This document shows, piece by piece, positions 3,124 through 63,653 of a stretch of DNA of 64,000 nt. Within the stretch, counting starts at the first letter, position 1; the number at the start of each line of letters is the position of its first letter. Source of the stretch: Candidatus Spongiihabitans sp. (GTDB lineage: Bacteria > Pseudomonadota > Gammaproteobacteria > Arenicellales > Poriferihabitantaceae); the NCBI GenBank assembly GCA_965261425.1, contig OZ253452.1, positions 673,160 to 737,159 on the forward strand, written 5' to 3'. The position numbers and the translations under genes were made by a program. Under the pieces are notes generated by a model. It made no database searches and was not told the DNA's origin. It worked only from the letters and a program-made list of their open reading frames with translations.

Positions 3124-3191
3124 GCTGGAAACAAAAAAATGCTCGTTATCAATTAAGGGGTCATTAGCAGTGGGGTTGTCATTATTTTATT

Positions 3192-3253
3192 GGCTATATT
3201 ACTGGGTTCCCGCTTTCGCGGGAACGACAAATATTGGTTTTTTGCACAGTCTC
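3192..3253. repeat. Mosaic intergenic repeat (TTACTGGGTTCC-hairpin module plus reverse GAGACTGTGCAAAAA module)
   Basis: The same modules recur at 11377, 15026, 18005, 29368, 44734, 58951 and 63133. Confidence 0.85.
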
Positions 3254-3323
3254 TCATGTCGGTAAAATGTAATTAGGGCACCCACTGTATTCTTCATAGA
3301 CCCGATCCTTTTTATGTTTAGCG

Positions 3324-4937
3324 TTAGCGCGTAAAAACCAAGTCGGCGGGAATGGCAAAGCCGATGCCCTCTACATTCTCATCAACGAACTTAAAAGTCG
3401 TAATTCCGACCAAATTACCGTCGCTGTCAAACAAGCCGCCGCCAGATGAACCCGGGGATATGGCGGCATCGGTTTGCACAACCTGATAACCGTCTATTTT
3501 CCGCAGTTGCGAAACAAGCCCAGCGGACAAGGATAAATCTAACCCTTGCGGCGCGCCCAAACTATACACATTCTCGCCCACCCTGAGGGTCTCGTATTTT
3601 CGCATTGTTGCAGGAACACCCCATAAACCATCAACCTCCAACAAGCAAAAATCCTGCTCGGTATCGCTGTGGCGGATAACCGCCGTCAAGGGCGTTGTCG
3701 TATCGACTCGACGATTGTTGGCTTTATACACGCTAATATCGCCACCCTCATCCACCACATGGCAGTTGGTTGCCACCACATTAGGGCGCACAATCACACC
3801 GCTACCCTGGCTGTCGTTGTTCACAATCACAACCACCGACCGCCAGGATTTTTCAAAAACCTGCTCGGCAATATTGGTGCTTTTAGATGGCTCCGCCAAG
3901 GCAAAGTTGTGATCCAAGCCGGCGTTTGTAGCAGAATCTGCTTTGCCTTGTTCGATATCTTGCTCAATGGCTCGTAATCGCCGTGCCGCTTCACGGCGGG
4001 CTGATTTTATTTCTGCGGCATCCAGATGCCAGTTATTCTCACGCAAACTATTCGTCGCTAATTCATTGCCGTTTGCCTTGGCAATGGAAAACCAGATAAA
4101 TGCCTCACGCTCATCGGTAATAAATCCTTCACCATTCCAATACATCACGCCCAAATTATATTGTGCGCTCGCATCCCCCTGCTCTGCCGCCAGCCGATAC
4201 CAGCGTACTGCCTCACTAGCATCCTGAGTAACCCCTCTGCCATTAGCGTACATCAGGCCCAAATTAAATTGTGCATCCGCAACCCCCTGCTCTGCCGCCT
4301 TGCGATACCAGCGTACTGCCTCACTAGCATCCTGAGTAACCCCTTCGCCTTTCCTGTACATCCCGCCCAAATTATATTGTGCGCTCGCATCCCCCTGCTC
4401 TGCCGCCTTGCGAGTCCAGCGTACTGCCTCGCTATAATCCTGAATAACCCCTTCGCCATTAGCGTACATCAGGCCCAAACCATATTGCGCGTTCGCATAC
4501 CCCTGCTCTGCCGCCTTTTGATACCAGCGTACCGCTTCGCGCTCATCTTCGATAACCCCGTAGCCATTCCAATACGCAACGCCCAAATTATATTGTGCGC
4601 TCGCATCCCCCTGCTCTGCCGCTTTTTGATACCAGCGTACTGCCTCGCTAGCATCCTCAATAACCCCTTTGCCATTAGCGTACATCACGCCCAAATTATA
4701 TTGTGCCTCCGCATACCCCTGCTCTGCCGCCTTGCGAGTCCAGCGTACTGCCTCACTAGCATCCTGAGTAACTCCTATGCCTTCATGGTACATCACGCCC
4801 AAATTATATTGTGCATCCGCATCCCCCTGCTCTGCCGATTCGTATTGCGAACAGAAATATGTATTATCAGACGGGCATTCGGCATGGGCAGTGTTAAACA
4901 CCATAGCAATCAGCAGTATTAACAGACTTTTTTTCAT
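3324..4937 (-). CDS. Secreted Sel1-repeat protein fused to a trypsin-like (S1/HtrA-type) serine peptidase domain
   Basis: Signal peptide MKKSLLILLIAMVFNTAHA. Seven 36-aa Sel1 units (AEQGxxxAQYNLGxMYxxGxGVxQDxSEAVRWYRKA). The C-terminal domain carries the triad contexts TNCHVV, DFCLLEV and GSSGGGLF. Confidence 0.85.
   Translation of the reverse strand: MKKSLLILLIAMVFNTAHAECPSDNTYFCSQYESAEQGDADAQYNLGVMYHEGIGVTQDASEAVRWTRKAAEQGYAEAQYNLGVMYANGKGVIEDASEAVRWYQKAAEQGDASAQYNLGVAYWNGYGVIEDEREAVRWYQKAAEQGYANAQYGLGLMYANGEGVIQDYSEAVRWTRKAAEQGDASAQYNLGGMYRKGEGVTQDASEAVRWYRKAAEQGVADAQFNLGLMYANGRGVTQDASEAVRWYRLAAEQGDASAQYNLGVMYWNGEGFITDEREAFIWFSIAKANGNELATNSLRENNWHLDAAEIKSARREAARRLRAIEQDIEQGKADSATNAGLDHNFALAEPSKSTNIAEQVFEKSWRSVVVIVNNDSQGSGVIVRPNVVATNCHVVDEGGDISVYKANNRRVDTTTPLTAVIRHSDTEQDFCLLEVDGLWGVPATMRKYETLRVGENVYSLGAPQGLDLSLSAGLVSQLRKIDGYQVVQTDAAISPGSSGGGLFDSDGNLVGITTFKFVDENVEGIGFAIPADLVFTR
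4067..4840. repeat. Intragenic ~108-bp tandem DNA repeats encoding the Sel1 units
   Basis: Blocks such as gcccaaattatattgtgcgctcgcatccccctgctctgccgc recur at about 108/216-bp spacing with near identity. Confidence 0.85.
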
Positions 4938-4986
4938 GGTTTCCTCGTTATGGGCGGTAAATATGCGTTTTATTGTAACAAATATT

Positions 4987-5063
4987 TGATAATTGAAAAT
5001 TGAGAATTGAAAATGGACGGTAAATTGATAATTGATAATTGATAATTGATAATTGAAAATGAT
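4987..5063. repeat. Heptamer-periodic tandem repeats (ATTGAAA / ATTGATA variants)
   Basis: Direct reading: aattgaaaattgagaattgaaaat...aattgataattgataattgataattgataattgaaaat. Confidence 0.9.
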
Positions 5064-5160
5064 AGTTAGATTTTGAAAAGAATATTTGACTGATTTCCTG
5101 CTTCCGTGTGGTGACTACCGAAAGTGTGGCTTTGGCCGCGCCACAAACAAGCCGGACTTA

Positions 5161-5255
5161 TGTACAGGATGTACGGGCAAATAATTGCTCCTGCATTATT
5201 TGCACTTCCGCCATCCATGGCGGTCGTATGCCGATTTTGCAGGAGCAAAAATCGG
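5161..5255 (+). mobile_element. Hairpin-module miniature element, 95-nt form (45-nt core plus 50-nt module B at 5177-5226)
   Basis: Identical to the 45-nt copy at 20855-20899 except for a 50-nt block inserted between GTACGG and TATGCC. TA lies on both sides (5159-5160 and 5256-5257). Confidence 0.8.
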
Positions 5256-5429
5256 TAAAGTCCCGCTTCCGAGATTATGCGAGAATCCAACATTCGTAGC
5301 TCCGTAGGAGCGGTATCTTTCTTTTGTGTCGCTCCTACGGAGCTTTGGCTGTCTCATTTATTTGTGCTACAAAGGTGTCATCCCTACGGGATTTTACTCA
5401 ATTCTTAATTTTCAATTATCAATTAAATC

Positions 5430-5607: not shown

Positions 5608-6602
5608 CTATCTGCAAGCATAATTGACATCAAAAGGCTGTTCTGATTTTAATACCCCATAAGATATAACCAGTAGTTTCCGCATCACCGCGCACACTGC
5701 CACTTGTTTAGGTTTGCCTTTATCAAGTAGCCTATTGTATAAATTCTGCGTGACTGGATTGTGTCGCGTTGCCGTCAGTGCTGGCATATAGAGAGACTTT
5801 CTCAGGCGTTTGTGCCCTATTTTTGACAGACTACTCTTGTTGATACTACTGCCAGACTGGGTTATCTTCGGATTCAACCCAGCAAAACTGGCCACTTGCT
5901 TGGCGTTATCAAATGACGATATATCCCCCATATAGGCGAGGATAGCCCAAGCCGTTTTGTTGCCAATCCCGCCAATGCTGGTCAATAACCGTACTTGTTG
6001 ACGCAACACAGAATCGCCTACAACCAAGTCCTTGATTTCCTGTTCAACAATCACTATTTGCCGACAGATGTACCGAATCATCGCTTTGATTGATTTGCTG
6101 GCGGTCTTATTCAAACTCACTGGCAAACGATTCTTCTCTTGGGTTGATTGTTTGTTTAACTGCTCCAAGCGCGTCATCAGGCATTGTAACGCAACACTGG
6201 CTTCGCTTTTGGGCTTGAACAGATTTTTCTCTAACTCACCTTTGGCCACAATATGTTGACAATAACGCGCAATGCTGCCAGCACTTGTGCCCTGTGGGTA
6301 TCGGATTTATCCGTTTTATTACGCAACATTTCCATCTTGACAAACGCATGGGTTCTCATTGGGTTCGCCACAATCACCTGGTCGCCTGAGCGATGTAAAT
6401 AATACGCCAAAGCAACCCCATAAACGCTGGTGGCTTCCATACAAAACACCCGCTCTTGCGCTGCGTCCAATGATTTTAGCCATTTGGACAAGGCTTTGAA
6501 GCCTTTATGATCATTAGCAAAAGACGGGTTGTGGTCAACACCCTCAACGCACACAGCACCATCAAAACGTGCTTTAGATATATCAATACCGATACATAAC
6601 AT
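5608..6602 (-). pseudogene. IS110-family DEDD recombinase/transposase split by a 17-nt insertion
   Basis: The N-terminal ORF (MLCIGIDISKARFD...RNKTDKSD) and the C-terminal ORF (...LLTSIGGIGNKTAWAILAYMGD..FAGLNP, Transposase_20-like) are in different frames. Deleting 6283-6299 fuses them into about 325 codons. Confidence 0.9.
6283..6299. repeat. 17-nt cassette ACTTGTGCCCTGTGGGT (equivalently CTTGTGCCCTGTGGGTA at 6284-6300) inserted in the IS110 transposase gene
   Basis: It matches the tandem unit at 2596-2690 and the copies at 44113 and 44282. Removing it gives ...KTDKSD|AGSIARYCQ... in frame. Confidence 0.85.
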
Positions 6603-6867
6603 AACATTCTCCGGTTATAATTGTAGATAGGTTGGATCATTTAACTTCGGTGCATCCTCGTACTATTCGTGCTCAGATTTTTGGTCTTGCACCAGATACT
6701 GTCCGCACTTGATGAAGTTAAAGCGGGTAGTAGGTGCGATACCTTGTCAACAAGTTTAAAAACTTACTGGGGGCTACTGCATCACTACTACCCATCCAAC
6801 CGCCGTTGGATAGGGTCCATTAAAAACCACTAAACGAGTTGATAATTTACCCGATTGGGATCATACG
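6603..6867 (-). ncRNA. Putative IS110 guide (bridge-type) RNA region in the non-coding left end
   Basis: A 265-nt non-coding segment lies upstream of the recombinase, as in IS110-subgroup elements. A long-range stem (6725-6736 paired with 6783-6793) encloses a hairpin and loops. This call comes from the family architecture, not from a covariance model. Confidence 0.35.
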
Positions 6868-6888
6868 AGGGGGGCAAGGGGGTTGGGT

Positions 6889-11179: not shown

Positions 11180-11376
11180 AGTGTTATTTTTAACTTAAAG
11201 AATAAGCTTTAATTATAGAAACTGAAAACAGACGGGATTATACCCGCCAAACCCAAAGCAGTGTTAAAAATACTGGAATCGGTCGATTCGTTCAATACTC
11301 TTAGTCGTTTTATTTATATAAATCAATGTGTTTAGATGTTTTTAATGGCTGACTAATTACGCATTACGAGTCGTTT

Positions 11377-11506
11377 GAGACTGTGCAAGAACCCAAATTC
11401 CGTCATTCCCGCGCAGGAGACTGTGCAAAAAACCAACATCCGTCATTCCTGCACCGACCCCGTCTTTCCTGCGAAAGCAGGAATCCAGTAAAATAGCCAA
11501 ACCTGC
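11377..11506. repeat. Mosaic intergenic repeat (two GAGACTGTGCAA modules plus CCTGCGAAAGCAGGAATCCAGTAAAATAGCC module)
   Basis: The modules are shared with 15026-15149, 58951-59074 and others. Confidence 0.85.
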
Positions 11507-11601
11507 ACTTCCGAAATTCCCCTGCCCCCGATAGATTAAGAAAGAACGATGTGTTATTGTTCTTATTAAATCTATCATCGTTTATGTGAGGAAAATTTAT
11601 A

Positions 11602-14978: not shown

Positions 14979-15025
14979 GACGATTGTTATCATACGAGAC
15001 ATTCCAGTGGTCGGGAAAGCCACCA

Positions 15026-15149
15026 GAGACCGTGCAAAAATCCAACATCCGTCTTTCCTGCACCGACCTCGTCTTTCCTGCGAAAGCAGGAATCCAGTAA
15101 AATACGCAAACCCGCAAGGGTTTTCGGTTTCAATTTTCAATTTTCAATT
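15026..15149. repeat. Mosaic intergenic repeat ending in a heptamer run (TTCAATT x3)
   Basis: Shared modules. It contains the hairpin AAACCCGCAAGGGTTT between the convergent malic-enzyme and iolE genes, which could act as a bidirectional terminator. Confidence 0.8.
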
Positions 15150-17937: not shown

Positions 17938-17960
17938 GTGTTTTTCGACCTTTACATATC

Positions 17961-18071
17961 GATTGATAATTGATAATTGATAACTGTCCACTGACAACTA
18001 TCTTTTTTTACTGGATTCCTGCTTTCGCAGGAAAGACAGAGGTTCGGTTCTTGCACAATCTCAAACGACTC
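17961..18071. repeat. Heptamer repeat (ATTGATA x3, then ACTGTCC ACTGACA) followed by mosaic repeat modules
   Basis: Direct reading, followed by the shared TTACTGGATTCCTGCTTTCGCAGGAAAGAC module. Confidence 0.85.
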
Positions 18072-20687: not shown

Positions 20688-20854
20688 GCTCCACTAATTA
20701 ACGATTAAATAAATATTAAAATGTACATTTCGTATTTTAGCGCCTATCTGGCTTTTGTCAAACATCGGAATCAGAAAATACTTGAGCAAAGACTTTTGCA
20801 TCATTCTCGGGAGTGCGTAGCCGTGCAAAGTCCGTGCTAGAACGGCGGGACTTA

Positions 20855-20899
20855 TGTACAGGATGTACGGTATGCCGATTTTGCAAGAGCAAAAATCGG
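20855..20899 (+). mobile_element. Hairpin-module miniature element, minimal 45-nt form
   Basis: TGTACAGGATGTACGGTATGCCGATTTTGCAAGAGCAAAAATCGG, flanked by TA on both sides and by GGGACTTA...TAAAGTCCC. It corresponds to the core of 5161-5255. Confidence 0.75.
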
Positions 20900-29367: not shown

Positions 29368-29485
29368 GATACTGTGTCAAATCTTTATGGGCAACCCTTG
29401 CGGGTTTGGCTATTTTACTGGATTCCTGCTTTCGAGACTGTGCAAAAAACCAATATTCGGCATTCCTAACCCCCCTTGCCCCCCT
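29368..29485. repeat. Mosaic intergenic repeat ending in the IS110 target string CCTTGCCCCCCT
   Basis: GATACTGTG.., CAACCCTTGCGGGTTTGGCTATTTTACTGGATTCCTGC, GAGACTGTGCAAAAAACCAATATTCGGCATTCCTAACCCCCCTTGCCCCCCT. The stem-loop followed by a T-run after iolB may terminate transcription. Confidence 0.8.
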
Positions 29486-29909
29486 CGTATGATCCCAATC
29501 GGGTAAATTATCAACTCGTTTAGTGGTTTTTAATGGACCCTATCCAACGGCGGTTGGATGGGTAGTCGTGATGCAGTAGCCCCCAGTAAGTTTTTAAACT
29601 TGTTGATAAGGTATCGCACCTACTACCCGCTTTACCGGTTTTTGCTCCTCGACAATTGCTCCTGCATTGTTCTAATAAGTTACATCCATGTAACGATACA
29701 AAACCGGCATACGACCGCCATGGATGGCGGAAGTGCAAATAATGCAGGAGCAATTATTTGCCCGTACATCCTTGTACATTAACATCATCAAGTGCGGACA
29801 GTATCTGGTGCAAGACCAAAAATCTGAGCACGAATAGTACGAGGATGCACCGAAGTTAAATGATCCAACCTATCTACAATTATAACCGGAGAATGTGATG
29901 TTATGTATC
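29486..29909 (+). mobile_element. Second IS110-family copy: left end plus the first 4 codons only (truncated)
   Basis: Apart from the 145-nt insertion it is nearly identical (a handful of mismatches) to the reverse complement of 6591-6867, including ATG TTA TGT ATC (MLCI). Homology stops at 29909. Confidence 0.9.
29635..29779 (-). mobile_element. Hairpin-module miniature element, 145-nt form (core plus modules B and C) inside the IS110 left end
   Basis: It is absent from the otherwise near-identical copy at 6603-6867. The filled site reads CCCGCTT-TA-[145 nt]-TA-ACATCATC and the empty site reads CCCGCTT-TA-ACTTCATC. Confidence 0.9.
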
Positions 29910-29935
29910 AGTAGTCATCATCATAGGAGGTATTA

Positions 29936-30442
29936 ATGACAGTAGAGATTATGCGAACGGACAAGTCGGCCTGCGATCTTCGGCGCGCCGCTGCGGCGTG
30001 CAGGGACGCGAAAGCGGCCCGACGGATGCTGGCGATTGCGTTGATTTTGGACGGCACTGACCGCAAGACGGCGGCCGCGAACTGCGGGATGGATCGCCAG
30101 ACGTTGCGTGACTGGGTACACCGTTACAATGACGCGGGGATTGAGGGTCTCTCGAACCGGCGTTCGCCAGGACGGCAGCCCCTGCTCAGCGTGGCACAGA
30201 AGGCGGAGTTGGCATCGCTTGTGCGTGAGGGGCCGGATCCCGAAACGGACGGCGTGGTGCGCTGGCGGCGCATTGACCTCAAGCGCAAGATTGAGGAGCG
30301 CTTTGGCGTTGTCATGCATGAGCGGACCGTTAGCAAACAACTGGTAAAACTTGGTTTTCGACGCTTGTCTGTGCGCCCGCAGCATCCGAAATCCGACCCG
30401 GATGCGCAGGATGCGTTTAAAAAAACTTCGCTGCAGAGGTAG
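29936..30442 (+). CDS. IS630-family transposase OrfA (HTH / DNA-binding part)
   Basis: Winged-helix/HTH region (…RQTLRDWVHRYNDAGIEGLSNRRSPGRQPLLS…) typical of IS630/Tc1 N-termini. It ends 17 nt after an A7 run. Confidence 0.85.
   Translation: MTVEIMRTDKSACDLRRAAAACRDAKAARRMLAIALILDGTDRKTAAANCGMDRQTLRDWVHRYNDAGIEGLSNRRSPGRQPLLSVAQKAELASLVREGPDPETDGVVRWRRIDLKRKIEERFGVVMHERTVSKQLVKLGFRRLSVRPQHPKSDPDAQDAFKKTSLQR
30419..30425 (+). promoter_or_regulatory. A7 slippery run: candidate -1 ribosomal frameshift or transcriptional slippage site joining OrfA and OrfB
   Basis: GCG TTT AAA AAA ACT in frame 0. Slipping back one base gives …KK-NFAAEV… and continues into the DDE domain. Confidence 0.6.
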
Positions 30443-30999
30443 CGGCCGTTCTGCCCAAAACGGCCTGCGGCAAACCATTGGAGATTTGGTTTCAGGACGA
30501 AGCTCGTGTGGGTCAGCAAGGGACGCTGACACGTATATGGGCCGAACGGGGAACCCGGCCGCGTGCGCCGCGTGATACACGTTATACGTCGGGCTATATC
30601 TTCGGCGCGGTTTGTCCCGAACGCGCCGAGGCTGCTGCGCTGATCATGCCGTATGCGGACACGTCCGCTATGAATGCACATCTGTGCGAGATCGCCAGGA
30701 CGGTCGCGGCTGGGGCCCATGCCTTGCTCATCCTCGACGGTGCAGGCTGGCACGGATCAGCAAAACGGGAAGTGCCAGACAACATCACCCTGCTCAAACT
30801 CCCGCCCTATGCGCCAGAACTCAACCCGATGGAAAACGTTTGGGCCTACCTGCGCGCCAACAAGCTGGCAATCTCTGTGTTTGAATCCTACGATGAGTTC
30901 GTCGACAAATGCTGCGATGCCTGGAATTTCTTCGCAGAGGACAAACAGGCAATCACATCAATTACATCACGTAATTGGGCCAAAACAGTCAATCAATAG
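30424..30999 (+). CDS. IS630-family transposase OrfB (DDE domain), -1 frame relative to OrfA
   Basis: From AAC at 30424 the -1 frame reads NFAAEVAAVLPKTACGKPLEIWFQDEARVGQQG…LILDGAGWH…PPYAPELNPMENVW, which carries the DDE triad contexts. An OrfA-OrfB fusion would be about 355 aa. Confidence 0.85.
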   Translation, partial: NFAAEVAAVLPKTACGKPLEIWFQDEARVGQQGTLTRIWAERGTRPRAPRDTRYTSGYIFGAVCPERAEAAALIMPYADTSAMNAHLCEIARTVAAGAHALLILDGAGWHGSAKREVPDNITLLKLPPYAPELNPMENVWAYLRANKLAISVFESYDEFVDKCCDAWNFFAEDKQAITSITSRNWAKTVNQ

Positions 31000-31194
31000 A
31001 GCCGTTGGACTAATAGGGTCGATAACGAACACTTGGCGACACCAATTACGATTGGACGTGTACGGATCGTGCCGATTGCTTAGCTAGGACAGATTAGATA
31101 TCTAAAACCGATTTTGTGAGCAGACTCTAATTAATGGGACAGTTAATTTACTCGTAACAACATTTGAGCTTTGGGTTGACAATTATGGTTTTGT

Positions 31195-42897: not shown

Positions 42898-43605
42898 TAC
42901 GCACTCCAATTGTTTAGGTTAAATTATATTTCACTTGATGATATTTATTTCACAAGCGGATTGTAGTTTAGGAGGCAAGTTGAGTCAAGCCCTTTTTCAA
43001 GAATGTTAGCCCAAAGCAGTAATGTCCCCTTTTGACTTCTTCAGGAGCGGTGCGGCGGGCTCACCGAGCGAGGGTTATGACAGAGGAGATAATTACATTG
43101 AGCCATGCAGATGAGCTGGGCAGAACTTGACCGAGTATCGGTTATTCATTCCATTATCGGGTGCCGGCGAGACCAGCACAGGCGGCGCGGCAACTACACT
43201 TAGGTCTCCGGCAGGTAAAACGCTTAACCCACGCTTATCGAGACTGTGGTGCGGCTGGACTTGCCTCCAAGCGGCGTGGGTGCCCGGCAACGCCATTGGT
43301 GATGAGTTGCGCCAACAGGCACTCGCCATCATCAAGACGCACTATGGTGATTTTGGGCCGACTTTCGCGCACGAGAAGCTCACCGAACTGCATGAGTGCC
43401 ATTTCTCGGTGGAGACATTACGAAAGTGGATGATTAAAGATGGGTTGTGGTTGGGGAAACAGCGTAAAAGAGTAGCCATCCACCAAAGCCGGTCTCGGCT
43501 GGGCGAGCTGGTACAGATTGATGGATCACCGCATGATTGGTTTGAGGGGCGCGCACCTAATTGCACTTTAATTGTCTTTATCGATGATGCGACCAGTCGG
43601 CTATA

Positions 43606-43748
43606 TGTACAGGATGTACGGGCAGATAGCTGCTCCTGCATTATCTGCACTTCCGTCTTCCATGACGGTCGTATGCCGGTTTTGCATCGCTACATGGATG
43701 TAACTTAGTAGGGCAATGCAGGAGCAATTGCCGAGAAGCAAAAACCGG
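43606..43748 (+). mobile_element. Hairpin-module miniature element, 143-nt form (core plus diverged modules B and C) inside the transposase ORF
   Basis: It has the same module order as 29635-29779. Removing exactly 43606-43748 rejoins …DDATSRLY|LALHFAPTETT… in frame. Confidence 0.85.
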
Positions 43749-44112
43749 CCTGGCTTTGCATTTTGCGCCCACAGAGACCACTCAATCGTATATGGAAACC
43801 CTCCATCAGAAACTTGAACAGCATGGCCGCACAGTCGCTATTTACAGCGATAAGCACAGTATCTTTCGGGTCAATCATCCCCAAAATAAAGAAATAGCAC
43901 GAGGGCGAATTAACCCAATTTACCCGCGCACTCAAAACCCTAGATATTGAGCCTATTCACACCAATACCACGCAGGACAAAGGGCGGGTAGAACGTGCCA
44001 ATAAAACGCTGCAAGACCGACCGGTTGTCGATCCGCGCTTACAGGGTATCAACTCTATTGAGCAAGCAGATGCCTTTTTGCCACAGTTTATTGACGACTA
44101 CAACCAGCGTTT

Positions 44113-44129
44113 TACCCGCAGGGCACAAG
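44113..44129 (-). repeat. 17-nt cassette (TACCCGCAGGGCACAAG, the reverse complement of CTTGTGCCCTGCGGGTA) inserted in the ISNCY-like ORF
   Basis: The upstream frame (…FIDDYNQRF) and the downstream frame (AVTAQHTDNAHRALL…) differ by exactly this 17-nt block. Confidence 0.8.
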
Positions 44130-44281
44130 TGCCGTTACCGCGCAACACACCGACAATGCACATCGTGCGCTATTGCACAGCGTCGAGGAGCTTAAACTGA
44201 TCCTCTGCCGGCACCATCAGCGTAAACTGTCTAAGAATTTAACCTTATCATTTTGTAACACCGAATATCAGCTGACTGGCT

Positions 44282-44298
44282 CTTGTGCCCTGCGGGTA
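44282..44298 (+). repeat. 17-nt cassette CTTGTGCCCTGCGGGTA inserted in the ISNCY-like ORF (opposite orientation to 44113)
   Basis: After …NTEYQLTG the frame breaks. Removing the block gives …LTG-YGKGYRLMR…. A separate 1-nt indel near 44325 then leads into ATITLCEDG…. Confidence 0.7.
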
Positions 44299-44733
44299 AC
44301 GGCAAGGGCTATCGTCTGATGAGGAGCGACCATCACGCTCTGCGAAGACGGTGCTACGGGTTTGGTTACATTGCTATACAAAGGCAAGGCATTGACTTAT
44401 CGAACGCTCCAAAAGGGAAAGGCCGCCGTTGTGATTGCCGATGATAAGACCGTTCATAACCACGTTGAGCCAAGCACTTCACCGACAACAAAAATTCACT
44501 TAGAAACCCGCACCAGATCATCCATGGCGGAGACCATTAACCCGTTATTCAACCAATACTGCCCCATAATGAATATAAAAAGGGGACATTACTGCTTTGG
44601 GTTGACACTATTTTGAAGTTGAAAATTACGACCCTTGTTTATGGTAAATCTGTTTTATTCTCCGTGTCCTCTGTGCCCTCGGTGTCGCATCTTTTAGAAA
44701 ATCTTGTTCATCCTGTTCATCCATGTAAATAGT

Positions 44734-44782
44734 GGAAAACCCTTGCGGGTTTGTTTGTTTTACTGGATTCCTGCTCCCCGCC
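44734..44782. repeat. Mosaic repeat module (GGAAAACCCTTGCGGGTTTG…TTTTACTGGATTCCTGC)
   Basis: The module is shared with 29391, 63175 and, in reverse, 15100 and 59055. Confidence 0.8.
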
Positions 44783-44808
44783 TATGCTTATAATCCATAT
44801 CATGTAAT

Positions 44809-58950: not shown

Positions 58951-59074
58951 ACCCGTCTTCCCCGCGTAGGAGACTGTGCAAAAAACCAACATCCGTCATT
59001 CCTGCGAAGCCTGTCCCCGCGCAGGCGGGGAGCAGGAATCCAGTGAAACACACAAACCCGCAAGGGTTTTCCGC
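58951..59074. repeat. Mosaic intergenic repeat (GAGACTGTGCAAAAAACCAACATCCGTCATTCCTGC, GC hairpin, GGAATCCAGTGAAAC…AAACCCGCAAGGGTTTTC)
   Basis: Modules shared with the other mosaic repeats. Located between the divergent argS and fbpA genes. Confidence 0.85.
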
Positions 59075-59150
59075 ATGGAACGCGCCCTATGGGTTCTTCT
59101 ACAGTCTTGCCACACTTCCGACAATGACGCAAAGGTTTAACAATATAATT

Positions 59151-63132: not shown

Positions 63133-63328
63133 GCGACTGTGCAAGAAACCCACGCTAAGCATGTGTTACATGCGGAAAACCCTTGCGGGTTTGGCTATTT
63201 TACTGGGTTCCTGCTTTCGCAGGAATGACGCATATTGGATTTTTGCACAGTCTCTTCCGCAGGAATGACGGACTAGGTTGCTTCTCAATTATCAATTATC
63301 AATTTTCCATTTTCAATTTTCAATTTCC
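63133..63328. repeat. Mosaic intergenic repeat plus heptamer runs (CAATTAT x2, TTTCAAT variants)
   Basis: GCGACTGTGCAAGAAACCC…GGAAAACCCTTGCGGGTTTGGCTATTTTACTGGGTTCCTGCTTTCGCAGGAATGACG…TTTTTGCACAGTCTC…, followed by ctcaattatcaattatcaattttccattttcaattttcaatttcc. The hairpin and T-run just after fbpC could terminate transcription. Confidence 0.85.
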
Positions 63329-63653
63329 AATAAGTTATGCTACAGTAACACCGTCAGTGAGGTGTTTACACTCCGCAAATAAGTCGCACAAATAACCCAT
63401 TTAACTGGAGGAGATTCCGAATGAAATCATTGTTTACCATAAAAACCCTTAATAATCATATAGTTGCCCCCCCGACATTATGGCAGTCTTTAGCCAATCT
63501 TTGTAATTACAAAAACACTCTCTCTCTCCTTTCAACAAAGATAGTAAAAAAAATAAAAACACATTGCTGACAAGCAGAGTAGCTTCCAACCTCCAACCTC
63601 CATTCTCAATTAAATAAACTATCTTTGGAGCAATAATTTTCAATTCCAAGACG

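Follow-up and report, generated by a model that had tools for sequence, protein, structure and literature searches.

Small hairpin-forming repeats, among them repetitive extragenic palindromes (REPs), bacterial interspersed mosaic elements (BIMEs) and MITEs (miniature inverted-repeat transposable elements), are common, and the origin and spread of only a few of them are known. Here we describe a family of such repeats in a 64,000-nucleotide stretch of DNA from Candidatus Spongiihabitans sp. (contig OZ253452.1, positions 673,160 to 737,159 of the forward strand), referred to below as the window. It consists of units of three types, A, B and C, which occur alone or nested within one another at four loci, and it is probably a family of very small, non-autonomous, hairpin-based mobile repeats with site-specific nesting. 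The family is distinguished by an unusually small unit, direct evidence of recent movement, strict nesting positions, its presence in many gammaproteobacterial orders and a core formed by a loop triplet, GGA.

The units resemble REPs, BIMEs and REP doublets forming hairpins (REPINs) in that they are short, non-autonomous, intergenic hairpin repeats of high copy number, are assembled as mosaics of alternately oriented units without terminal inverted repeats, and lie preferentially outside genes. They differ in that their consensus sequences contain no GTAG or CGTC tag, the conserved parts being the loops and the spacers GTATG, AAGTG and TAGTAG, in that they insert into each other's loops and spacers and do not lie side by side, and in that the same loops occur across several orders. 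With the palindrome-associated transposable elements (PATEs) of the IS200/IS605 family they appear to share subterminal hairpins, the lack of a target duplication, precise junctions and an orientation-specific insertion beside a short target. Here, however, the target is the hairpin apex or spacer of a sister element, both hairpins carry the same loop triplet, and neither a parent insertion sequence (IS) nor TnpA was found in the window. Classical MITEs (Correia/NEMIS, ERIC, RUP, Nezha and the Coxiella QMITEs) are likewise small, non-autonomous, intergenic, foldable and sometimes nested, but they have DDE-derived terminal inverted repeats and target-site duplications, and the A element (5' T(W)ATG..., 3' ...CCGG) has neither. 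The small dispersed repeats SDR4-6 of Nostoc punctiforme, 21–27 nt long, are reportedly mobile as well and found as insertions in one another or in further kinds of repeat. Those repeats are cyanobacterial, whereas the present family is gammaproteobacterial and has 45–50-nt two-hairpin units with GGA loops. Among RNAs, CsrB, CsrC and RsmX/Y/Z also contain arrays of short, paired hairpins with GGA loops, and the CAGGAUG and GCAGGnAGC hairpins of the family are nearly those of Escherichia coli CsrB. In contrast to these RNAs, the copies are dispersed, nested and found on both strands; they do not form a discrete gene with promoter and terminator, and they match no Rfam model.

A preliminary description of the window, made from its letters alone, had named four copies, and all four are present at the same sites, with exact differences of whole B and C blocks in the alignment. 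The copies and their parts are as follows.

5158–5255, plus strand: copy 1, state A(B), core 5161–5255, identified by alignment, folding and covariance model.
5161–5176: 5' part of A in copy 1, preceded by TTA and containing hairpin-2 GTACAGGATGTAC.
5177–5226, minus strand: module B of copy 1, 50 nt, inverted; its minus-strand reading is CGA-CCGCCATGGATGGCGG-AAGT-GCAAATAATGCAGGAGCAATTATTTGC, and it scores 76.5 bits.
5227–5255: 3' part of A in copy 1, TATG followed by hairpin-1 CCGATTTTGCAGGAGCAAAAATCGG.
20852–20899, plus strand: copy 2, state A only, 45-nt core 20855–20899, 35.1 bits with the covariance model.
29635–29781, minus strand: copy 3, state A(B,C), a composite of 144 nt (29635–29778) from TGTACA to CCGG.
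29635–29648, 29697–29711 and 29762–29778: A segments of copy 3, with TTA at 29779–29781.
29649–29696: module C of copy 3.
29712–29761: module B of copy 3, sense on the plus strand.
29766–29777: hairpin-2 of copy 3, GTACAAGGATGT.
43604–43749, plus strand: copy 4, state A(B,C), core 43606–43748.
43606–43621, 43672–43686 and 43735–43748: 5', middle and 3' parts of A in copy 4.
43622–43671: module B of copy 4, inverted.
43687–43734: module C of copy 4.

The window thus holds nine units in four loci. In a four-way alignment, the 45-nt and 95-nt forms are separated by an exact 50-nt block between GTACGG and TATGCC; the two had been called identical otherwise, but one loop base also differs (GCAAGAGC versus GCAGGAGC). 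Copies 3 and 4 contain an additional exact block, C, between GCA and GGAGC of the terminal hairpin CCGnTTTTGCA|GGAGCAAAAnCGG. The position of this block was given correctly before, and its size is 48 nt, not about 50. For the copy at 29635 the presence of B plus C also stands, whereas the base at 29779, taken as its end, belongs to the flank. The loop string GCAGGAGC occurs eight times in the window against 1.44 expected, and six of the eight lie within copies; the hairpin-1 loop of copy 2 is mutated to GCAAGAGC. A further string, TGTACAGGATGTACGG, occurs three times against 0.33 expected, and copy 3 has CAAGGATG at the place of CAGGATG in the other copies. A chance origin of the copies is excluded. 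Every form folds better than its shuffles both as RNA and as DNA (z −3 to −6), a check that had been proposed with the preliminary description, and the minimum-energy fold as DNA is a modular set of hairpins. An outer inverted repeat, GGACTTA...TAAAGTCC, has copy 1 at its apex, and copy 2 has the same outer context, GGGACTTA...TAAAGTCCCACTTCC. This outer repeat (GGGACTTA...TAAAGTCCC) is also found without the element.

The basic unit is 45–50 nt long and consists of two hairpins with a constant loop-to-loop spacing. Hairpin-2, the first in the reading order of the unit, has the form stem-CA-(N)GGA-TG-stem and reads GTACA(A)GGATGTAC in A, CCGCCATGGATGGCGG in B and GTTACATGGATGTAAC in C. Hairpin-1 has the form stem-T-GC-AGGA-GC-(bulged A)-A-stem. 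The distance from GGATG to GCAGGAGC is about 17 nt in A, B and C alike, and the subfamilies are told apart by their spacers (GTATG, AAGTG and TAGTAG for A, B and C), their stems and their ends (T(W)ATG...CGG in A, TCG...CGAG in C). Because B shows the common design only on the opposite strand, it is inverted inside A; C is oriented as A. Three features had been overlooked earlier: the two-hairpin design with identical loop spacing common to all modules, the orientation of B, opposite to that of A and C, and a second class of conserved loop, CA-(N)GGA-TG, which is present in TGTACAGGATGTAC, CCGCCATCCATGGCGG and GTTACATGGATGTAAC.

A single scan of a species-representative genome collection with the pattern CAWGGATG-N16-TGCAGGAGCA returned at least 119 loci (numbered with an L below), almost all of them from Gammaproteobacteria; this statement, and those that follow on carriers, unit starts, covariation and nesting, concern the matches listed. 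Methylococcales, Cellvibrionales and Lysobacterales are among the orders represented. The carriers are Methylobacter, Methylomicrobium/Methylotuvimicrobium, Methylomonas, Shewanella, Colwellia, Bowmanella, Microbulbifer, Cellvibrionaceae, Porticoccaceae, Marinobacterium and Saccharospirillum, as well as Dokdonella/Lysobacterales, Woeseiaceae, Ectothiorhodospiraceae, Sedimenticola and Thiotrichales. Carriers available in culture include Methylotuvimicrobium buryatense 5G and Shewanella. The outer stem of hairpin-2 is present in 136 of 149 relaxed matches, compared with about 2% of random positions. Chance matches have a different look, as a scan of viral contigs showed in which only three of 14 pattern matches had stems, and the matches in the genome collection are not due to chance. 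A plasmid collection contained nothing matching the 156-nt composite. The A5'-B arrangement of the window recurs at 85–92% identity in Ca. Pelagadaptatus, Bowmanella, Marinobacterium and Sedimenticola, which suggests either horizontal spread or a very strong constraint.

With a covariance model built exclusively from B-type units of other genera, the window's three B blocks reach 59–77 bits, copy 2, which consists of A alone, reaches 35 bits and both C blocks reach 24–28 bits; nothing else in the window exceeds 12 bits. Among 61 B-type units from many genera, 90.4% of the cells are paired, compared with 71% after shuffling and at most 53% after sliding of the partner. Double changes occur in 170 cells and in 12 of the 17 pairs, and none of 500 shuffles reached the observed values. 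The stems of A- and C-type units covary too. In the units that the covariance model detects and the exact pattern misses, the loops vary in flanking bases and size (CATGGACG, CAGGGATG, CATGGAAG, GCATGGAGC, GCAAGGAGC, GTCGGGAAC, GTATGGAAC), and GGA is missing from very few of them. Loop conservation had been named as a test of the family, and the triplet is retained in nearly all loops, those of diverged copies included. Hairpins within 150 nt of a unit have GGA/TCC loops in 31.5% of cases, against 11.8% for distant hairpins, a 2.7-fold difference. The conserved core of the family is the near-invariant loop triplet GGA.

Evidence of mobility comes from the hosts of copies 3 and 4. The window contains an IS110-family element (5608–6882, minus strand) with a transposase gene split over 5608–6602 and a 280-nt 5' non-coding end; in IS110 elements this end encodes a guide RNA. 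A second IS110 copy is truncated by an IS630-like element (29936–31087, plus strand). The relevant features are the following.

6582–6882, minus strand: empty-site paralogue, the 5' non-coding end of the IS110-family element, contiguous at the insertion site of copy 3 (6719–6721).
29471–29918, plus strand: filled-site paralogue, the second, truncated IS110 5' end, with copy 3, cut at 29919 by the IS630-like element.
43127–44700, plus strand: ISNCY-family transposase pseudogene, host of copy 4, with further frameshifts downstream.

The two IS110 paralogues are inverted relative to each other and are 99% identical over 164 nt (29471–29634) and 96% identical over 140 nt (29779–29918). The sole interruption between them is the whole composite: the empty site reads CCCGCT-TTA-ACTTC and the filled site CCCGCT-TTA-[CCGG...GTACA]-TTA-ACATC. 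This pair shows that the whole composite moves as one piece. In the ISNCY pseudogene, copy 4 is an insertion of 146 nt, TATGTACAGG...CCGGC, between CTA and CTG without duplication, the site being placed by comparison with a 71%-identical ISNCY homologue from Klebsiella (IDDATSAL-MALRF versus IDDATSRL[Y]LALHF).

The ends of the element, T(W)ATGTACA... and ...AAAAnCGG, are not complementary, and there are no terminal inverted repeats. A fixed-length target-site duplication is not convincing at the IS110 site and is absent at the ISNCY site. The lack of both features argues against DDE-type MITEs. Left flanks mostly end in TTA, TAA or ATA, and boundaries are ambiguous by at most 3 nt. Nearly all A-type units of other genera start with TAT(G/T). 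The simplest view is therefore that the T(W)A on the left side of the copies in the window belongs to the element as its 5' end, and the TTA/TAA repeat of the IS110 site probably does not represent a target duplication.

Copy 2 is situated about 100 nt upstream of aroC (chorismate synthase). The AroC protein of the window is 87–91% identical to proteins from long-read metagenome-assembled genomes (MAGs), including Candidatus Spongiihabitans sp., and the loci L120–L124 were fetched from these genomes. An A(B,C) composite is found in L123 and L124. L121 has an A-variant of 39 nt that L120 and L122, almost the same otherwise, lack, a polymorphism at the level of strains. Neither copy 2 nor its outer repeat is found in the conserved 55 nt upstream of aroC in the relatives; synteny around their aroC is not conserved, which limits this comparison to the 55 nt adjoining the gene. 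Exact-protein look-ups for two window proteins found none on record. The copies are real and have been recently mobile.

L120, L121 and L122 come from one sponge metagenome (ERZ26693861/ERZ26051151) and are near-identical contigs with small indels, which include an 18-nt tandem duplication and an 83-nt deletion in a transposase gene. A 343-nt insertion with an open reading frame (ORF) for a small membrane protein is located between atpE and atpF.

Within the composites, units are shown by their recurrent junctions to integrate at defined places and in a defined orientation. C is found at GCA^GGAGCA, the apex of hairpin-1, in direct orientation with its host; about 12 of the 43 C units have this position, always in host orientation. 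The hosts are of the A type in the window, L104 and L123/L124 and of the B type in L031, L078 and L097, and L078 shows a threefold nesting of C in C in C. B is inverted at CGG^TATG, where it separates the first hairpin from the TATG spacer in different A-like hosts, and 19 of 80 B units, from at least 12 loci, are followed by the inverted CATCC(N)TG hairpin (hairpin-2). All four states have been seen: A (20855), A(B) (5161), A(C) without B (L104) and A(B,C) (29635, 43606 and L123/L124). A itself is found beside TTA/TAA-type sequence; it often occupies the apex of some other palindrome or adjoins the 3' end of a further A, the latter in L104 and L121.

Other arrangements occur in some genomes. 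In five Shewanella loci (L020, L028, L038, L074 and L108) and one from Sedimenticolaceae (L083), a larger conserved repeat, about 200 nt in length, contains a C-type unit in its GGTA|GAG spacer; this repeat is rich in GGA hairpins, is present in several copies per genome and has no matching Rfam family. L019 contains three B-type units in tandem with a 51-nt period (3904–4056). On the minus strand of L033 (about 5800–5900), A-like 51-nt units are in tandem, and the hairpin-1 loop contains another GGA hairpin.

Serial, precise nesting, as proposed in the preliminary description, is borne out by the four states, the recurrent junctions in unrelated hosts, the empty-site paralogue and the strain polymorphism. 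If the short forms were instead deletion derivatives of a long ancestral composite, B or C would have been lost by hairpin-promoted slippage or recombination, and no serial insertion would be needed. A 10-nt direct repeat flanks the L121/L120 indel, the grouping ((5161, 29635), 43606) pairs a copy lacking C with one that has it, so that a precise loss of C or two gains are needed, and the A(B) arrangement is widespread across genera; all three fit such a scheme. We nonetheless regard it as quite unlikely. In copy 1, each B and C junction has a single shared base, G, longer flanking repeats not having been searched for. The breakpoints are precise and identical in every copy, in unrelated hosts, and the random breakpoints at which the preliminary test was aimed were not found. 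A-only units with an intact CGGTATG are abundant without A(B) nearby, for example in Lysobacterales arrays, C is found inside both B- and A-type hairpins in a recursive nesting, and the IS110 pair represents a gain of the whole composite at a site without homology to the element.

The four copies of the window do not reveal the order of insertion. Over its 5' 74 nt, copy 3 shows no substitution against copy 1, and its 3' part has a compensated G-C pair and the C block in common with copy 4. Since copy 3 is thus a mosaic of copies 1 and 4, recombination, gene conversion or precise loss must also occur.

We propose that the units would be mobilised by a trans-acting enzyme acting on folded single strands, such as an HUH/Y1-like 'peel and paste' transposase or a comparable hairpin-specific recombinase. 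An enzyme of this kind would account for units being gained precisely, and probably lost precisely, and for their preference for the apices of hairpins. The near-invariant GGA loops may be recognised by a conserved partner; this would be the protein that mobilises the units or, at the level of transcripts, CsrA/RsmA. Several observations weigh against site-specific mobile repeats of this kind. The target of A is loosely defined; the boundaries at the IS110 site are ambiguous by 0–3 nt, and the right flank at the ISNCY site differs. Given the 10-nt direct repeat that flanks it, the L121 indel could be due to replication slippage. Copies are mosaic, and recombination or gene conversion could yield some states without transposition. 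The perfect pairing of stems could come from intrastrand templated repair and not from selection. Finally, the search for a Y1 transposase, suggested in the preliminary description, detected no Y1/HUH transposase with Pfam among the approximately 50 ORFs of the window, where the transposase sequences are of the IS110, IS630-like and ISNCY types, and tblastn with an approximate IS608 TnpA query, a probe of low power, gave no match in about 1 Mb of element-bearing loci.

The absence of a Y1_Tnp gene from the window, and from the surroundings of units with the approximate probe, also counts against REP/REPIN elements mobilised by a REP-associated tyrosine transposase (RAYT; a Y1 transposase that has been domesticated) and against IS200/IS605 derivatives of the PATE type. 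Such elements would account for hairpin-based units without terminal inverted repeats or a clear target duplication, and the inverted unit pairs, B against A or C, resemble REP doublets. The minimum-free-energy fold as RNA pairs B with hairpin-1 of A or C, although the units are interleaved or nested and not adjacent doublets. IS608 moves by HUH 'peel and paste', with precise gain and loss, and by analogy the precise gain and possible precise loss seen here would fit. At 5299–5343, 45 nt downstream of copy 1, there is in addition a GTAG-tagged, REPIN-like inverted pair, GCTCCGTAGGAGCG...CGCTCCTACGGAGC, which is consistent with this origin and hints that the genome may also carry classical REP/RAYT-type repeats. 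There is, however, no GTAG or CGTC tag beside the hairpins of the family, and its conserved part is the loop, where REPs conserve tag and stem. REP and RAYT pairs co-diverge, unlike the loop identity across several orders seen here. An origin as REP or PATE elements is considered unlikely.

Both the GGA triplet and the hairpin around it match the site bound by CsrA/RsmA, which is among the most conserved global regulators, and the units may have a second reading as RNA. According to this reading they are primarily CsrA/RsmA binding modules, in which two GGA hairpins per 48-nt unit would suit one CsrA dimer, the dispersed copies would place transcripts under Csr control or titrate CsrA, and the tandem arrays would be sponge RNAs. 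Selection by the highly conserved CsrA would explain identical loops across orders despite drifting stems. The consensus for CsrA from systematic evolution of ligands by exponential enrichment (SELEX) is RUACARGGAUGU with GGA in a hairpin loop (PMC4347634). Hairpin-2 fits CANGGANG, and GUACAAGGAUGU of copy 3 matches the SELEX consensus at 12 of 12 positions. E. coli CsrB has 22 GGA motifs, with CAGGATG, the heptamer of the family core CA(N)GGATG, six times, CAAGGATG once and GCAGG(G/A)AGC hairpins, and one of its hairpins, GTTCAGGATGAAC, is identical to hairpin-2 of the L033 units. GGA is also the single nearly invariant feature of the loops, and the units are found about twice as often in convergent as in divergent intergenic regions (21 versus 11).

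Lysobacterales (Dokdonella, Tahibacter and others) have arrays in which A-type units of 48 nt follow one another head to tail and the GGA loops all lie on the same strand (L027, 6400–6570; L029, L048, L062, L064, L065, L102 and L107; L096, minus strand, 3760–3960), an arrangement that likewise fits CsrA binding. These arrays begin directly after a terminator-like hairpin and T-run, and their similarity to RsmW is weak. We know of no Rsm sponge RNAs identified in Lysobacterales/Xanthomonadales so far, and the terminator-proximal arrays could be a candidate source of sponge RNAs for RsmA.

Rfam gave no match at the gathering score in the window or in 18 loci. Permissive scans returned noise and weak Rsm-family matches and nothing else; the families with even weak similarity are all of the Rsm type (RsmY 12.8 bits, RsmW 18.4 bits), with scores far below the gathering scores of 57 and 52 bits. 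The TwoAYGGAY motif (RF01731) has a loop that the hairpin-2 loop AUGGAU fits and the hairpin-1 loop AGGA does not, and cmscan gave no match to it at E ≤ 10. The covariance model of the unit gives CsrB at most 4.7 bits, so the units are not homologous to CsrB at the level of the unit. No description of the family was found in Rfam 15 or in the searchable literature, including links between CsrA and repeats or MITEs, and the family appears to be undescribed there.

Other observations fit less well with units that act primarily by binding CsrA. A strand bias relative to flanking ORFs is absent (26 sense and 19 antisense, not significant, with crude ORF calls). Because B is always inverted relative to A, half of the loops read UCC in any transcript, and in RNA folds the antisense B hairpin pairs with the sense GCAGGAGC hairpins, which would mask them. 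Precise nesting and mobility are also left unexplained. A CsrA-binding role at the RNA level is possible, and as the primary nature of the units we give it some weight while thinking it less than probable. More tentatively, the family may be a mobile carrier of predicted high-affinity CsrA/RsmA sites, each 48-nt unit a dual-site ligand for one dimer, where nesting and tandem amplification would build multi-site RNAs and dispersed copies would rewire the Csr regulon across Gammaproteobacteria. If CsrA is bound, this would be selfish DNA that distributes the sites of a global post-transcriptional network and possibly seeds sponge RNAs; in the opposite case the family nevertheless points to an enzyme by which DNA is inserted at the apices of hairpins.

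That the copies are paralogues of a structured small RNA gene or of a cis-regulatory RNA, and not mobile DNA, is highly improbable. Their structure is stable and covarying, and one copy precedes aroC by about 100 nt in sense orientation, as such an RNA might. No promoter or terminator is associated with the copies, however, and promoter-like matches stem from heptamer repeats; copies are situated within insertion sequences and a pseudogene, and there is neither a strand bias nor an Rfam family.

The heptanucleotide tandem repeats that produce these spurious matches (ATTGAAA, ATAATTG, TCAATTT) flank other repeats at 2728–2758, 4982–5064, 17948–17983 and 63285–63331 and resemble the short tandemly repeated repetitive (STRR) sequences of cyanobacteria. 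They had prompted a comparison with cyanobacterial SDR-type repeats, which was ruled out by the GC content of the window (46.9%), the gammaproteobacterial pattern matches and the closest relationship of AroC to Ca. Spongiihabitans-like MAGs; the window derives from a gammaproteobacterium resembling sponge symbionts and not from a cyanobacterium. Often adjoining the heptamer repeats is a second, larger mosaic repeat family, intergenic and in both orientations, with the motifs GAGACTGTGCAAAAAnCCAAnAT..CGTCATTCCTGC, GCAGGAATCCAGTAAAA and AACCCGCAAGGGTT; it is found at 3177–3278, 11360–11516, 15009–15125, 17986–18071, 29393–29469, 44734–44783, 58953–59081 and 63165–63272. A perfect 17-nt tandem repeat, CTTGTGCCCTGCGGGTG, is present in 5.6 copies at 2596–2691, with related single copies at 6281–6304 and 44279–44302. 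Finally, a 108-nt tandem repeat of 6.5 copies (4141–4837) is located in a gene for a Sel1-repeat/trypsin-like protease (3324–4937, minus strand) and is coding sequence, not a mobile element.

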